Source: Tortispora ganteri
Taxonomy: Eukaryota
DNA: 64,000 nt
Assembly: GCA_003707115.1 (NCBI GenBank)
Contig: PPNB01000004.1
Location: forward strand, 372,001 to 436,000
Reading direction: 5' to 3'
Part shown: one piece after another, positions 1,272 to 61,691 of the stretch
Layout: each line of letters begins with the position of its first letter
How positions within the stretch are numbered: the first letter of the stretch is position 1
Translations under genes and position numbers: made by a program
The notes under the pieces: generated by a model
Databases searched by the model: none
The model's input: the letters and a program-made list of their open reading frames with translations, nothing else
What the model was told of the DNA's origin: nothing

Positions 1272-2161
1272 TTAACAGCACCCATTACCAGAACCTTGTT
1301 GAACGTTCTGTCCACGTAGATTGACATTAGGCTTAGCAGATCCACCTCCAGAAACAGAGTCAGATCCTATAGCATCTTTGATTTGACGAGCCATAGTCAA
1401 AAATGCCTGCTCAACATTAGTTGCATCCTTAGCAGATGTCTCTAAGAATGGAATTCCTAGACTATCAGCGAACTCTTTGGCAACAGTATATTCAACAACT
1501 TTCTGGTCCTTCAAATCAGATTTGTTTCCAACAAGAAGCTTGACAACGCTTTCGGCTGCATAACGATCTATCTCTTGAAGCCATTGCTTGACGTTATTGA
1601 AGCTCTCTTGATCAGTAACATCGTACACTACAATAATGCCGTGCGCTCCGCGGTAGTAGCTCGACGTAATAGTGCGGAATCGCTCCTGACCTGCAGTGTC
1701 CCAAATTTGTAACTTCACAGTCTTGCCTTCGAGGTCGATAGTGCGAATCTTGAAGTCAACACCAATAGTCGATATATACGAGTCCGTGTAGGTGTCATCG
1801 GCAAATCGCAATAATAGGCAAGATTTACCGACACCTGAGTCTCCAATGAGCAGAAGCTTAAACAGAAAGTCGTAGCTATAGATTGAAATTTCGGTTAGTA
1901 TTCAGTACCATATAGGTTTGCATATATGCAATTTTACTCTGATTGTTGTTAGTATGCTGCAGTGTTGTGAGTGCTATCAGTGGACTATAGATGTATATAT
2001 AGTGACGAGGTTACATGGAAGAGGAAACTAGTTATGTAATTATATACAACCGGTTCCCCATAAAAAATTCTCATATATTGCAAAATCCTACTCATTCAAA
2101 CAGATTCAACGCAATATTTCTATACTCCATTAACAGGTTGTACTTACTACTCTGGATTCAT
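1272..2161 (-). CDS. YPT1: Rab1 GTPase Ypt1, spliced: exon1 2161-2151 plus exon2 1875-1272, giving 204 aa starting [22 protein letters not shown]
   Basis: [24 protein letters not shown] motifs and a C-terminal CC. The N-terminus is recovered only by splicing from the ATG at 2161. Confidence 0.97.
1876..2150 (-). other. Outer spliceosomal intron of YPT1 (66 nt after the inner intron is removed), with its donor split as GTA|AGT
   Basis: GTA (2150-2148) joined to AGT (1938-1936) rebuilds GTAAGT. Second TACTAAC at 1900-1894, acceptor TAG ending at 1876. Confidence 0.75.
1939..2147 (-). other. Inner spliceosomal intron (209 nt) of the nested YPT1 intron
   Basis: Donor GTAAGT at 2147-2142, branch point TACTAAC at 1954-1948, acceptor CAG ending at 1939. 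Confidence 0.8.
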
Positions 2162-8665: not shown

Positions 8666-10121
<1,456 letters not shown>

Positions 10122-52790: not shown

Positions 52791-55136
52791 CTATTTTTTA
52801 TGCATTTCGTAGAACATCTTAGCCTCTTCTATTACATTTTCAATATATGTAGGCTTTTGTATACTGTCGCGAACCCATTTGGACATTTTTGTCTGTAATT
52901 TCGCCTTTGAGTATCTTTCGTCTAAAAAGAACAAAGCTGCATAGTCGTTGACATGCCTTATAGCTCTGCCCATGGCCTGATTTACGGCTCTAATGCAGGT
53001 TCCTTCAATATATGCAGTTGCCTTTGATTTCGCTTCCGACTCAGATAAGCCGTTAGATATAGCTTTATCTTTTATGTATTGAGACCGCGCAATTGTTTCC
53101 ACTGATTTAATATTAGGGAACGGGACGCCGACCATTATGACCCCACGAGCCAGATTATCTGCAAAGTTAATACCTTCAGACATTTTCCCACCTGTAACGC
53201 AAAAAAGAACAGCACCTTTCGTATTAGCGGCTTCCTGAAACTCAAGCAATGTCTGTTCAACCAAAGCCGAACTCGTGGGTTCATACATCACTTTCTTTTG
53301 GACCTCGATATCTTGAAATACGCCTGATTCGGACCAATAAGACAGCAGTTCCTTAAGATAAATATATGATGGGAAAAAAACCACTGCTCCAAAAGGAATG
53401 ACTGAACATAGTTTAAGTATTGCAACACCTATATCGTTCGCTGTGCTCTTGTTGGATCTGTTAGCAAACGTGACATTTATAGGATTCTCGCCCACCTTAG
53501 TGATAGTATATGCGCGTACATTGTTTTCAGGTATGACATGCCCACAAGAAAATTTATTAATAAGTGATGGATCCATTTTAGGCAATAGGTATGTCACGAA
53601 ATCATCCATTGGCTCCATAGTTCCTCCAGCTAGTATGACACATTTTGCTTGCTCGACTATTGTTTCAAAGACATGGCTAACGTCTAATTGTAAGTAAAGC
53701 AAGCTGGGGTTTGAAGAGTTATTTTCAACAACGAGCTGACCATCTTGAGAAGGAAAATTAAGGGTTATCAAGAAAGAGATGATAGTGGATAGCAATGGTA
53801 CTTCAAAAGACGTCTTCTTATCGCCGGGTATTTTTTCAGATAGTTTGTAATCCATATATGCATTGATTTTGAACGCAAGTTTAGATTTTGAAACAAAATC
53901 TGAAAGTGTATAAATGTTAATCAATTCTGCTGCTGAATCACTAAATATACTCGAAGTATCAAGTATGCATCCTGGTGGGAATTTTGTAGGGGTAGTTTTG
54001 ATTTGAATCAAAAACTTCTGTAAATCTTGCAGGAGCATTTGAATATGAAGTACATGGACACGATTGTGAGGGTTCAGGCGGTTTTGAAATTTGTCTATGT
54101 ATATCTGTAGACAATGAAGTGCTTGGTCTACTCGTGACAAAGAAACAGATTTTGAAAGAATACTTGAAAGTGTTTCCAGCAAATTGTGCGCTTCGTCAAT
54201 TATAATGATGCTATCTCGCAGAGGCAGGGAAATGGATCTTCGTGCAGTGTCATCCAAAAGAAGATTGTAAGGCAAAGAAATGATTTCTGCCATGGGGATA
54301 TCATGTTTTACCGCATAATATGGACAAGTAGAAAGAGATTCACCAATAGAAACAATATCTTCAATGTCATGAATACCTGTGAATAAAGCGTCGTTGAGGT
54401 CTGAAGCTCTCGCCTGAGAGAGTGGATCAGCAGGTTTGGCAACATAAGGGCATAATTTGATGCCTTTGCCCTTACGAGCATCCTGACATCTATCATTGAT
54501 AAATGCTGCTGGTGAACTCATTACTGGTTCATATATGCACATGCGTGACCGCGAAGCCAGTGGTATATATCTGATGGGTAGTGCTGAATCATCTGTGTAA
54601 GGTAAGGGTGATACCAAGCGCAATTGAGAAGCCAGTTGAGAGAGCTGTGAATGTGTGCGAGAAGTGAAGATAATTCTAGGTTCTGTGTTTTCTATTGCAT
54701 TCAATTGCACTCTAGAATATTCACGTAACAGAGAAGATGCTGTTTCGGATAAATTAGTAGTCTCTTCATCGGGTAGGAAGGAATCCAATGAAACGGCCGA
54801 GGGCTTGTACCGTTTTCTAGACGTTTGGCGCGGCTGGTGTTTGATTTCCGGCTTCTGAAGTTGCTGAAAGAATTTCTTCCATTTCTCTTGTCGTGCCTGC
54901 TGAGCAATATTAGTAGCGCTCTGCACCCAATGAGGAGCGTCTGGAGTTTCTTGATCGTCTGGGGTTGGAGGAGGTTGACGTTCCCAGGCCAGAGTGGCAC
55001 AAAGGAGAGACAGTGTTTTTCCAGTACCTGTAGGAGATTCAAAAATCCCTACTTTTTTACCAGAAGCAATAGTATCGTATATAGCATTCATGAGATCCAC
55101 CTGTATAGGATATGGATCATACGGATGACCGAACAT
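52791..55136 (-). CDS. CHL1: Fe-S DEAH DNA helicase Chl1/DDX11
   Basis: HPYDPYPIQ, ESPTGTGKT, SRTHSQL, four Fe-S Cys, DEAHN, GRAIRH. First ATG at 55136. Confidence 0.93.
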   Translation of the reverse strand: MFGHPYDPYPIQVDLMNAIYDTIASGKKVGIFESPTGTGKTLSLLCATLAWERQPPPTPDDQETPDAPHWVQSATNIAQQARQEKWKKFFQQLQKPEIKHQPRQTSRKRYKPSAVSLDSFLPDEETTNLSETASSLLREYSRVQLNAIENTEPRIIFTSRTHSQLSQLASQLRLVSPLPYTDDSALPIRYIPLASRSRMCIYEPVMSSPAAFINDRCQDARKGKGIKLCPYVAKPADPLSQARASDLNDALFTGIHDIEDIVSIGESLSTCPYYAVKHDIPMAEIISLPYNLLLDDTARRSISLPLRDSIIIIDEAHNLLETLSSILSKSVSLSRVDQALHCLQIYIDKFQNRLNPHNRVHVLHIQMLLQDLQKFLIQIKTTPTKFPPGCILDTSSIFSDSAAELINIYTLSDFVSKSKLAFKINAYMDYKLSEKIPGDKKTSFEVPLLSTIISFLITLNFPSQDGQLVVENNSSNPSLLYLQLDVSHVFETIVEQAKCVILAGGTMEPMDDFVTYLLPKMDPSLINKFSCGHVIPENNVRAYTITKVGENPINVTFANRSNKSTANDIGVAILKLCSVIPFGAVVFFPSYIYLKELLSYWSESGVFQDIEVQKKVMYEPTSSALVEQTLLEFQEAANTKGAVLFCVTGGKMSEGINFADNLARGVIMVGVPFPNIKSVETIARSQYIKDKAISNGLSESEAKSKATAYIEGTCIRAVNQAMGRAIRHVNDYAALFFLDERYSKAKLQTKMSKWVRDSIQKPTYIENVIEEAKMFYEMHKK

Positions 55137-55226
55137 TTCTTCATTCTTAGTTGGACGGTGGTCAAAGTTGGACAAGCAGAACGAACTTTATTATGGTGTT
55201 GTAGTTTCTTTTCGTCAATATCAACA

Positions 55227-56729
55227 ATGACTGTAGCAGTGTATCCTAGTGCTAATATACGCGATCAGATACCTGAATATATATGGACTGAAGCTATATC
55301 ATTATGGAAACGTTTATTGTCATTTGCAGTTGAATCAGGGCTTTCTGATATTACTGAAATTGTTGGTTTCTCAGGGTTCGTACGCTCTTATTTACAGAAT
55401 GGAGCTGACGATAAGGAGTTGCGATGGCTTATATACGCGCTCATGACAAATCTTTATACCTCAAAACTTGACAAGTATTCTCCTTGGCGTGAAGCTGATA
55501 CTGATGCATTATGGTGGTTTCTAAAGTTGTATTTGAGCGATAATTTCACGGCAGTCAAGCGACTCATTTTACATTTAGCTACTACTAGAGCTAAGGCATA
55601 CACACGATTGTGCGATATCATTGTAGATATGTGCAGCCGTAATATTTTTGACGATTCTGATGAAAGGCTCTTGAAAGTTACAGCTTCCTCAGACACGCTA
55701 ATACTACCTCTAATTCCTTGCAAACCGTGGGTCGATTCGTTGATGTCACTATACGCCAACAATCCCACTACATCAGCTATTATTGTTTGTTACTATTGGT
55801 TTATTAGCCTTTTACATTCGGGAAAACTAAATGAGCTGGAAGACACTATAAAATACTGCATATCGCAGATGCCGCGTAATGCCTCTTTGCGAGAAAACTT
55901 AACGGCTGCGTTATTAGTGAAAACAAGTTTGTTTGAAGTTTTTGAAAAAAATGGCAAACTGTCTGCCTCATGCATGAAATCTCTGACTACAGTAAGACAG
56001 AAGTATAAACTCGCAAACAGCGAAGAAAACACCTACATACCCACAGATTCCGATATCAGCAGTCTGAGGGAAATATATCAGAACATGACAATAGACGATG
56101 CGAGAACTGTACTCATTGAACATGGTAGTCTCGAACAGGCTTTATCTGATTATAAAAGTGATTTCTCTATGGATGAAGATCTACCAACGGCTAATACTGC
56201 TTCTCATTTGACGAAGAACAAGATATTCGATATCCTCGAGCAGATGTATGAGGACGACGAGGACGACGAATATATAGAGGGAGATTCACACATAGCAGTT
56301 TTAGAGGGTGACCCTGAATTAGAACCAGACGCATTTTTAACTACGAGAGTATCGGTACCACCTCATGAAACCTACCTATACGAAGTATACAAAAACCGAC
56401 CTGAACTCTTTCTGTCAACTAGTAGGAAGACCAAAGAAAGGCAGCAAATTGCAGATGACCTCAAGTCGATGAATCTTCAATGGTCACATGAACAAATAGA
56501 AGGCTGGAGTCGTATGCTGGAAAAAGATTCAAAATTACGCCGGAGACTTGAAGACAATTATCTAATTGAATTAGGTAGAAACTCGGTAGGTGCAGTACAA
56601 AACACTAACGCGAGCGCTAAACCAAAAACAAAGTCAAAGTCGAAATCGAAATTCCCGAAAAAGAATACGACTCAAAATAAGCAGAAAGGTCGCGATCGCA
56701 AATTACAACGTGCCGCACCGCGTGATTAG
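55227..56729 (+). CDS. CUE3: Cue3/Rqt3/ASCC2-like ribosome quality-control factor
   Basis: Likely ATG at 55227. Degenerate CUE-like segment, YEDDEDD, WSHEQIEGWSRML and a basic tail ending KGRDRK. Confidence 0.72.
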   Translation: MTVAVYPSANIRDQIPEYIWTEAISLWKRLLSFAVESGLSDITEIVGFSGFVRSYLQNGADDKELRWLIYALMTNLYTSKLDKYSPWREADTDALWWFLKLYLSDNFTAVKRLILHLATTRAKAYTRLCDIIVDMCSRNIFDDSDERLLKVTASSDTLILPLIPCKPWVDSLMSLYANNPTTSAIIVCYYWFISLLHSGKLNELEDTIKYCISQMPRNASLRENLTAALLVKTSLFEVFEKNGKLSASCMKSLTTVRQKYKLANSEENTYIPTDSDISSLREIYQNMTIDDARTVLIEHGSLEQALSDYKSDFSMDEDLPTANTASHLTKNKIFDILEQMYEDDEDDEYIEGDSHIAVLEGDPELEPDAFLTTRVSVPPHETYLYEVYKNRPELFLSTSRKTKERQQIADDLKSMNLQWSHEQIEGWSRMLEKDSKLRRRLEDNYLIELGRNSVGAVQNTNASAKPKTKSKSKSKFPKKNTTQNKQKGRDRKLQRAAPRD

Positions 56730-61002: not shown

Positions 61003-61691
61003 ATGTCTAAATCACTATTAATCGCCTGGCAAACTGCGGATAAATTGGTGCTGGTTATTGGAGGAGGAAGTGTAGGTAGTAAAAGACTAATAATTATAGA
61101 TTATACTAACAATAGGTTGCATATTCGAGGGTCCGGAAACTGCTGGATGCGGGGGCGCGAGTTCGTGTTGTTTCGCCTAGCCTCGAGAAAGAATTGTCAG
61201 ACTTGGAAAATGAGATTGAATATATTGCAAGGAAGTTTGAGGATTCAGACCTCGATTATGACATTTCAATGATACTAGTGGCAATTGATGACCATGAGGA
61301 AAGCACCCGTATCTATAACTTATGTAAAAAGAAAGGCGTGCCGGTGAATGTGGCAGATGTGCCTGAAGAATGCGATTTCTATTTTGGGGCAAACTACGAC
61401 GATGGACCTTTACAAGTATTAGTATCTACGAACGGTGAAAGTCCAGGTATGGCCTCGTATTTAGGCAAATATATTGCTTCACATTTGCCACCTCATATAC
61501 GCGAAACAATCGAGATGTTTGGTGAAATGCGAAGACGACTACGATCAAGGTTCCCTGGCCCTGAACACTCAAAGTTCAGAATGAGACTTATGAAAAAATT
61601 AACGCAGGAATACCGTGAATCTGATCCGTCTACCATTGACATTGATGCTGTGCTGGACAAGCACACTATTGAGCCTCTAAAAAACCAATAG
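61003..61691 (+). CDS. MET8: Precorrin-2 dehydrogenase/sirohydrochlorin ferrochelatase, spliced: 61003-61071 plus 61116-61691 (214 aa)
   Basis: SLLIAW, VLVIGGGS|VAYSR, VNVADVPEECDFYFG, VSTNG. The 44-nt intron GTAGGT...TACTAAC-AATAG joins two ORFs in frame. Confidence 0.92.

Follow-up and report, generated by a model that had tools for sequence, protein, structure and literature searches.

Here we report an analysis of the YPT1/Rab1 gene of the yeast Tortispora ganteri and of the intervening sequence that separates its two exons, located in a stretch of 64,000 nucleotides (nt) of genomic DNA (GenBank assembly GCA_003707115.1, contig PPNB01000004.1, positions 372,001 to 436,000 of the forward strand), hereafter called the window. 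The 275 nt between the exons form a credible candidate for a [D3,4] spliceosomal twin intron (stwintron), in which a complete intron is nested within the donor site of another, split between donor positions 3 and 4, and these 275 nt are probably, though far from certainly, excised in two steps. The gene lies on the minus strand, which is used throughout for this locus, and all lengths and translations were scripted from window coordinates. Translation of exon 2 (P0001) gives 200 residues of a Ypt1/Rab1 GTPase, which along its entire length shares 84% identity with the Ypt1 proteins of Yarrowia lipolytica and Sugiyamaella lignohabitans. The Ras-family domain, the similarity to fungal Ypt1 proteins, and the C-terminal double cysteine (the protein ends in GCC) identify it as a Ypt1/Rab1 GTPase. 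The gene and its signals are arranged as follows.

1272-2161, minus strand: YPT1/Rab1 gene
2161-2151, minus strand: exon 1 if the intron is removed in two steps, ATG AAT CCA GA (ATG at 2161-2159)
2150-2148, minus strand: GTA, 5' half of the putative split outer donor
2147-1939, minus strand: candidate inner intron, 209 nt
2147-2142, minus strand: inner donor GTAAGT, perfect
1954-1948, minus strand: inner branch element TACTAAC, branch A at 1949
1941-1939, minus strand: inner acceptor CAG, the first AG past the branch element, 10 nt after the branch A
1938-1936, minus strand: AGT, 3' half of the putative split outer donor
1935-1876, minus strand: remainder of the outer intron
1900-1894, minus strand: outer branch element TACTAAC, branch A at 1895
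1878-1876, minus strand: outer acceptor TAG, 19 nt after the branch A
1875-1272, minus strand: exon 2 plus stop codon, beginning with C TAC GAC TTT CTG

The original prediction, made from the sequence of the window, had listed these elements, and each of them was read directly in the sequence at its predicted place on the minus strand. It had also claimed that the region contains only one intact donor, which is correct, as the upstream GTAGTA departs at positions 4, 5, and 6 from the fungal donor consensus GURWGY (PMC7138796). When the inner 209 nt are removed, GTA and AGT are joined and rebuild a perfect GTAAGT donor, and the resulting outer intron of 66 nt carries this donor, a TACTAAC element with the branch A at nt 47, and a TAG acceptor; the predicted lengths and frames of both units were reproduced by our script. 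Thus, a candidate inner U2 intron with a complete set of signals is nested between GTA at 2150-2148 and AGT at 1938-1936, its removal would yield a canonical outer intron of 66 nt that has a branch element and an acceptor of its own, and the outer donor, which reads GTAGTA before that removal, is predicted from its sequence to be non-functional. The kind of element proposed here, a donor-disrupted spliceosomal twin intron, is already known.

A one-step alternative, running from GTAAGT at 2147 to the distal TAG, would remove 272 nt and leave GTA at 2150-2148 as the 3' end of the exon (GAG TA|C). Exon 2 begins with C1875, which completes either an Asp codon (GA|C) or a Tyr codon (TA|C). Removal of the entire 275 nt gives a protein of 204 residues that starts with MNPDYDF (MNPDYDFLFK), and removal of 272 nt gives an in-frame protein of 205 residues that starts with MNPEYYDF, as had been predicted for the 2148^1875 junction and as our translation of that junction confirmed. 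A stop at codon 5 is present in the unspliced RNA and in the intermediate that lacks the inner 209 nt only.

Two further features were observed close to these elements. The outer intron contains a perfect 14-nt palindrome, TTGCATATATGCAA, at positions 1918-1931, downstream of the rebuilt donor and upstream of the distal branch element. Two tiny upstream open reading frames, ATG GCG TCG TAG and ATG ACG ACG ACC TAG, are located at 2231-2256 on the minus strand, approximately 80-95 nt 5' of the YPT1 start.

Splicing signals in the window and their chance expectation

Three convincing introns were found in the window, in YPT1, in RVB2, and in a gene for a MET8-like siroheme synthase, the latter two being arranged as follows.

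61003-61691, plus strand: MET8-like siroheme synthase gene, exon 1 at 61003-61071
61072-61115, plus strand: MET8-like intron, 44 nt, GTAGGT...TACTAAC...TAG, with the AG 6 nt after the branch A
8666-10121, minus strand: RVB2 (TIP49) gene, ATG at 10121-10119, with the intron directly after it
10118-10052, minus strand: RVB2 intron, 67 nt, GTAAGT...AACTAAC...AAG, where AAG is the first AG, 16 nt after the branch A

The MET8-like junction GGGS|VAYS matches, residue for residue, the annotated Tortispora caseinolytica protein P0220, and the MET8-like protein is 89% identical to this counterpart. The same junction is backed by Pfam, since exon 2 begins at position 18 of the NAD_binding_7 profile, of which the read-through of exon 1 spans positions 1-23. 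The model of the RVB2 intron was derived from the reading frame and the TIP49 match, and its AAG acceptor is unusual. Judged from these cases, introns of this yeast are short. All three donors in the window have a G at position 5 and a T at position 6, and the first AG past the branch element is used in both the MET8-like and the RVB2 introns, even at a distance of 6 nt. Since the first AG is usable at 6 nt in this window, the inner CAG of YPT1, which lies 10 nt after a perfect branch element, would be a competent acceptor. The inner branch element and the CAG are, in addition, predicted to be mostly unpaired (0.69 and 0.79). With its 66 nt and the branch A at nt 47, the outer intron has a geometry that appears normal for the organism. 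An intron of 272-275 nt would be atypically long, with 272 nt corresponding to four to six times the lengths of the other two introns in the window.

Four copies of the TACTAAC element were counted on both strands of the window against 6.97 expected (standard deviation 2.6), and two of the four fall inside the YPT1 intron. We further estimated the chance expectation of the inner signals from 200,000 dinucleotide-preserving shuffles of the intron interior (2141-1901), in which we required a branch element, a YAG at 5-40 nt that is also the first AG downstream of it, and AGT immediately thereafter, and in which the GTA before the donor was taken as given. This arrangement was obtained in 50 of the 200,000 shuffles (0.025%) with TACTAAC as the branch element, in 140 with ACTAAC, and in 1,597 with the relaxed element CTRAY. 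The test is conservative, because the real TACTAAC is part of the shuffled material. The set of inner signals is therefore unlikely to have arisen by chance.

Intron position in Rab1 homologues

The protein search with P0001 provided 8,000 scored proteins, the best 120 of which were considered further; the top fungal matches among them are 84-87% identical. The motif D[YF]LFK was located by regular expression in 118 of these 120 Rab1 matches, the two that were missed reading EYDYVFK and RYDYLFKTLL. The two residues that precede the Asp of the motif are EY in 86 of the 118 proteins, RY in 17, DY in two, and other combinations in 13, and YY was found in none of them. The RY class includes second gene models of Yarrowia, Sugiyamaella, and Saitoella, which read ...R|YD[YF]LFK, and a model from one Logan contig likewise reads ...R|YD[YF]LFK through the acceptor. 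In these models the gene caller read through the acceptor (AG plus a purine), which implies a phase 2 intron within the Glu codon.

Removal of 275 nt from the T. ganteri gene interrupts codon 4 in phase 2 (GA|C), which is the intron position implied by the read-through models, so that the ancestral position would be kept. The product of two-step splicing would have the usual N-terminal length of Rab1 proteins, with Asp replacing Glu. An Asp at this position is also present in the homologous protein P0096 and in two metagenomic loci, L037 and L002, with N-termini of the MNPDY-D or ...PDY-D type in the latter two. The one-step product would insert a Tyr that is seen in none of the 118 homologues. 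With respect to the intron position, the N-terminal length, and the geometry of the outer intron, the stwintron is the reading that agrees best with the comparative data.

In a scan of metagenomic contigs with the exon 2 protein, 581 relatives were confirmed and 80 were kept (L001-L080); among these 80, none exceeds 85% identity over its best segment and none comes from Tortispora. Classification of the 80 loci by regular expression placed an acceptor directly before Y-GAY, that is, an intron inside the Tyr codon, in 15 loci, and an acceptor before N-TAY-GAY, that is, an intron inside the Glu codon, in four, the remaining loci being continuous (35), of other types (10), or without the motif (16). 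Visual inspection was confined to L037 and L002, and coding AGs may account for part of the 15 and of the four loci so classified. L037 (1916-2000) encodes MNPDY|DYLFK and has its intron inside the Tyr codon (GATTA|GTAAGT), and L002 (1981-2020) is intronless and reads ...PDYDYLFK. If the classification is right, Rab1 genes would have introns at two positions that are 3 nt apart.

No Tortispora Ypt1 is present among the best 120 of the 8,000 scored proteins, although T. caseinolytica proteins were found for two other genes of the window, YME2 and MET8, and an identity above 90% would be expected. The YME2-like protein is 93% identical to its T. caseinolytica counterpart (653 of 702 residues, with scattered substitutions), its other matches being approximately 36% identical. 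From these two proteins, the window belongs to a close relative of T. caseinolytica and not to that strain itself. YPT1 may be absent from the annotation of T. caseinolytica, conceivably because of the nested intron.

Proposed splicing route and its alternatives

In the proposed two-step route, U1 would recognise only the perfect GTAAGT at 2147, and this donor would pair with the branch element that is transcribed first (1954-1948) and with the first AG (CAG at 1941-1939), whereupon the inner 209 nt would leave. Ligation of ...GA-GTA to AGT-AAAAT... would create a new perfect GTAAGT, 11 nt after the ATG, in an intermediate that stops at codon 5 and would be untranslatable into Ypt1. A second standard reaction would then use the new donor, TACTAAC at 1900-1894, and TAG at 1878-1876 to remove the remaining 66 nt, and the final mRNA would encode a Ypt1 of usual length with the start MNPDYDFLFK. 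If GTAAGT at 2147 paired directly with the distal branch element, 272 nt would be lost, the GTA would be kept in frame, and the protein would start with MNPEYYDF. The sequence elements, the reading frames, and the comparative fit are established, and from them and from precedents we infer that the inner branch point is used, in which order the reactions run, and in what ratio the products arise. The two-step route is probably used alongside the one-step isoform and is expected to provide a substantial or major share of the mRNA.

Several points weigh against two-step excision. GTAAGT, the distal TACTAAC, and TAG form a complete ordinary intron with an in-frame product; the one-step alternative keeps the frame at the cost of one extra codon, so that a functional mRNA may not require inner excision. 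The first base of exon 2 is C, at a position where relatives have A or G (17 read-through models); the one-step route needs a pyrimidine there, as TA|A or TA|G would terminate translation, and the C suggests that this route is in real use now or was so in the past. The N-terminal tail is flexible, and an additional Tyr in it may do no harm. The local splicing rules are based on only three introns in the window. Finally, RNA structure favours neither branch point significantly: the 296-nt region folds no better than shuffled sequences do (z = -0.17), and a stem between 2136-2114 and 1996-1974, by which the donor would come close to the inner branch element, falls short of significance (p = 0.11, 1,000 mononucleotide shuffles).

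Most of the weight on the other side falls to a single conventional intron of 272 nt, which would run from GTAAGT at 2147 by way of the branch element at 1900-1894 to TAG at 1878-1876, in which case the protein would carry the extra Tyr, the inner TACTAAC and CAG would be an unused or minor decoy, and the AGT would be coincidental. We regard this as unlikely, yet as an explanation to be taken seriously, since each of its three signals is perfect, the reading frame is preserved, a single reaction makes for the simpler pathway, the C of exon 2 avoids the stop that the A or G of the relatives would give, and a TA|Y intron occurs in other eukaryotic Rab1 genes (L037, and 15 of the 80 metagenomic loci as classed by regular expression). 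It is difficult to reconcile, however, with a perfect and accessible branch element that sits upstream of the distal one and is followed by a first AG at a usable distance. Use of this inner site without rescue would lead to a stop at codon 5 in an essential gene, and the arrangement that permits rescue was as rare among the shuffles as given above. Moreover, the single intron would be four to six times longer than the other two and would generate a YY-D N-terminus that none of the 118 homologues has. A very improbable variant is that the inner 3' splice site is used with no re-splicing, so that a premature-stop isoform destined for nonsense-mediated decay tunes the output of YPT1 and functional mRNA comes from the one-step route only. 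Such an isoform has a precedent in LSM2 of Saccharomyces cerevisiae (PMC5029451), and the YPT1 intermediate does stop at codon 5, but its junction remakes a perfect GTAAGT, which precedes an equally perfect branch A by 46 nt within a normal 66-nt unit, and nothing is visible that would keep the spliceosome off the rebuilt donor.

The two other explanations concern the additional GTA. Excision of all 275 nt in one reaction from the upstream GTAGTA would produce the conserved protein and the conserved intron position directly, and the G at position 4 is shared with the donor GTAGGT that is used in the MET8-like gene; but GTAGTA has neither the position-5 G nor the position-6 T common to all three donors in the window, and the overlapping perfect donor 3 nt downstream should capture U1, which leaves this route hardly any likelihood. 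Even less credence is given to the possibility that the GTA is a 3-nt assembly or sequencing error that conceals a simple GA|GTAAGT intron. The sequence GTAGTA forms a short tandem repeat, but an insertion of three bases is not a usual assembly error, and the AGT after the inner CAG makes sense only together with the extra GTA.

Returning to the stwintron, we tentatively propose, as an idea that is more doubtful than otherwise, that it is a natural in-frame stwintron in which the choice of the branch point alone sets which of two functional N-termini Ypt1 receives, MNPD-YDF (two steps) or MNPEY-YDF (one step), and that it is perhaps a living intermediate of an intron slide by one codon. The one-step donor lies at the intron position of many eukaryotic Rab1 genes, in the Tyr codon, and the acceptor at the ascomycete position in the Glu/Asp codon, which, if the classification of the metagenomic loci is right, makes the intron a candidate intermediate of such a slide. 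Partial duplication of the donor by 3 nt (GTA-GTAAGT), together with an inner 3' splice site, would then provide a concrete mechanism by which an intron of an essential gene slides by 3 nt and function is preserved.

Comparison with known nested introns and other features of the locus

Among donor-disrupted stwintrons, the original prediction had named the [D1,2], [D2,3], and [D5,6] types as known. These three, as well as the [A2,3] type, have indeed been demonstrated, but the list was incomplete, as [D4,5], [D6,7], and [D7,8] stwintrons were added in Lipomyces, where their two-step excision was verified by reverse transcription polymerase chain reaction (RT-PCR) and partial duplication of the donor was proposed as their origin (PMC7138796). 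Close to the YPT1 element is the [D4,5] stwintron in the reticulon-like protein gene of Lipomyces lipofer, which also belongs to Saccharomycotina, occupies the first intron position, and has a donor split by a complete GUAAGU...branch...YAG intron whose removal rebuilds the outer donor, with units whose sizes, 158 and 162 nt, are similar to the 209 and 66 nt in YPT1 (PMC7138796). The two differ in the position of the split, between donor positions 4 and 5 in L. lipofer and 3 and 4 in YPT1, in the gene, and in the yeast order, and the L. lipofer intermediate was verified by RT-PCR whereas the YPT1 case is a candidate (PMC7138796). In the alternatively spliced [D6,7] stwintron of L. starkeyi, and as proposed for YPT1, one-step splicing from the proximal perfect donor to the distal acceptor leaves in-frame exon 1 bases (6 nt and 3 nt, respectively) and two-step splicing removes them all, so that both mRNAs are protein-coding (PMC7138796). 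However, L. starkeyi has abutting intact donors (a stwintron sensu lato), and the outer donor of YPT1 exists only after inner removal (sensu stricto) (PMC7138796).

With few exceptions, the stwintrons described so far belong to the [D1,2] type and come from filamentous fungi (PMC12403724). The [D1,2] stwintrons of Pezizomycotina resemble the YPT1 element as proposed here in being nested U2 introns that are removed in two standard reactions, with a competing one-step "missplicing" from the inner donor to the outer acceptor, but this one-step reaction leaves a single G and breaks the frame there, in contrast to the three bases and the intact frame predicted for YPT1 (PMC12403724). Many [D1,2] stwintrons are repeated, sequence-similar elements, unlike the YPT1 intron, which has no other copy in the window (PMC12403724). 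As proposed for YPT1, an upstream branch element in LSM2 of S. cerevisiae directs the use of a 3' splice site between two branch elements and gives an RNA with a premature stop; that isoform is a dead end bound for decay, which rises in the upf1 null mutant, whereas the YPT1 junction remakes a donor and would be re-spliceable (PMC5029451).

The route proposed for YPT1 also resembles recursive splicing at the ratchet points of Drosophila and vertebrates, where the reactions are successive and the first junction restores a 5' splice site. A ratchet point has its entire donor downstream of the AG, and the upstream exon ends at the same base in both reactions; in YPT1, the CAG is followed by AGTAAA, which is not a complete donor, and a zero-length-exon ratchet point is therefore not present. 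The first YPT1 donor is located 3 nt inside the final intron, so that the first reaction would cut 3 nt downstream of the final exon end, and the regenerated donor would consist half of upstream and half of downstream sequence. Recursive splicing has reportedly been engineered in S. cerevisiae by Lopez and Seraphin in 2000.

We found no [D3,4] stwintron in the sections and abstracts that our literature search covered, and, among the papers searched, none that combines stwintrons and ypt1. Stwintrons are rare, and the budding-yeast cases that we found in the literature are confined to one Lipomyces gene (PMC7138796). If true, the YPT1 case would provide a new split position, a second independent budding-yeast lineage with a stwintron, and a stwintron in an essential, universally conserved GTPase gene of a host with strict TACTAAC-type signals, accompanied by an unusual competing one-step route that stays in frame. 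As both routes are in frame, the gene would offer a clean natural system for the study of branch-point choice and of a one-codon intron shift by partial donor duplication. If the one-step junction alone is made, the element would be an ordinary intron with a decoy branch site and of little interest.

Other sources of the long inner unit were also considered. A small nucleolar RNA or another RNA gene within it was rejected, as no Rfam match was found inside the intron at E values up to 10; the single Rfam match in the region 1700-2400, SCARNA7 (8.6 bits, E = 8.4), lies upstream of the intron, and the whole window contains no Rfam match at the gathering level and no tRNA. A mobile or repeated intron was rejected because, within the window, the region 1876-2200 has no other copy beyond chance words of 10-11 nt. 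An insertion with target-site duplication was rejected as well, the shared bases being mostly required by codons, the branch element, and splice signals. The sequence CAGAGTA occurs both at 2154-2148, at the boundary between exon 1 and the intron, and at 1941-1935, across the inner acceptor. A looser similarity is seen upstream of the two CAGAGTA copies (AACAA..AAT; 2148-2165 and 1935-1950) and could be a trace of duplication; a second pair of short repeats is not collinear with the CAGAGTA pair.

YPT1 is flanked by a gene for an SSA-type HSP70 protein and by a mitochondrial-carrier gene. Elsewhere in the window, an open reading frame of 645 codons without a Pfam match (54792-56729, plus strand) overlaps the 5' end of a DEAD_2 helicase gene on the opposite strand (52791-55187, minus strand) by approximately 400 nt.

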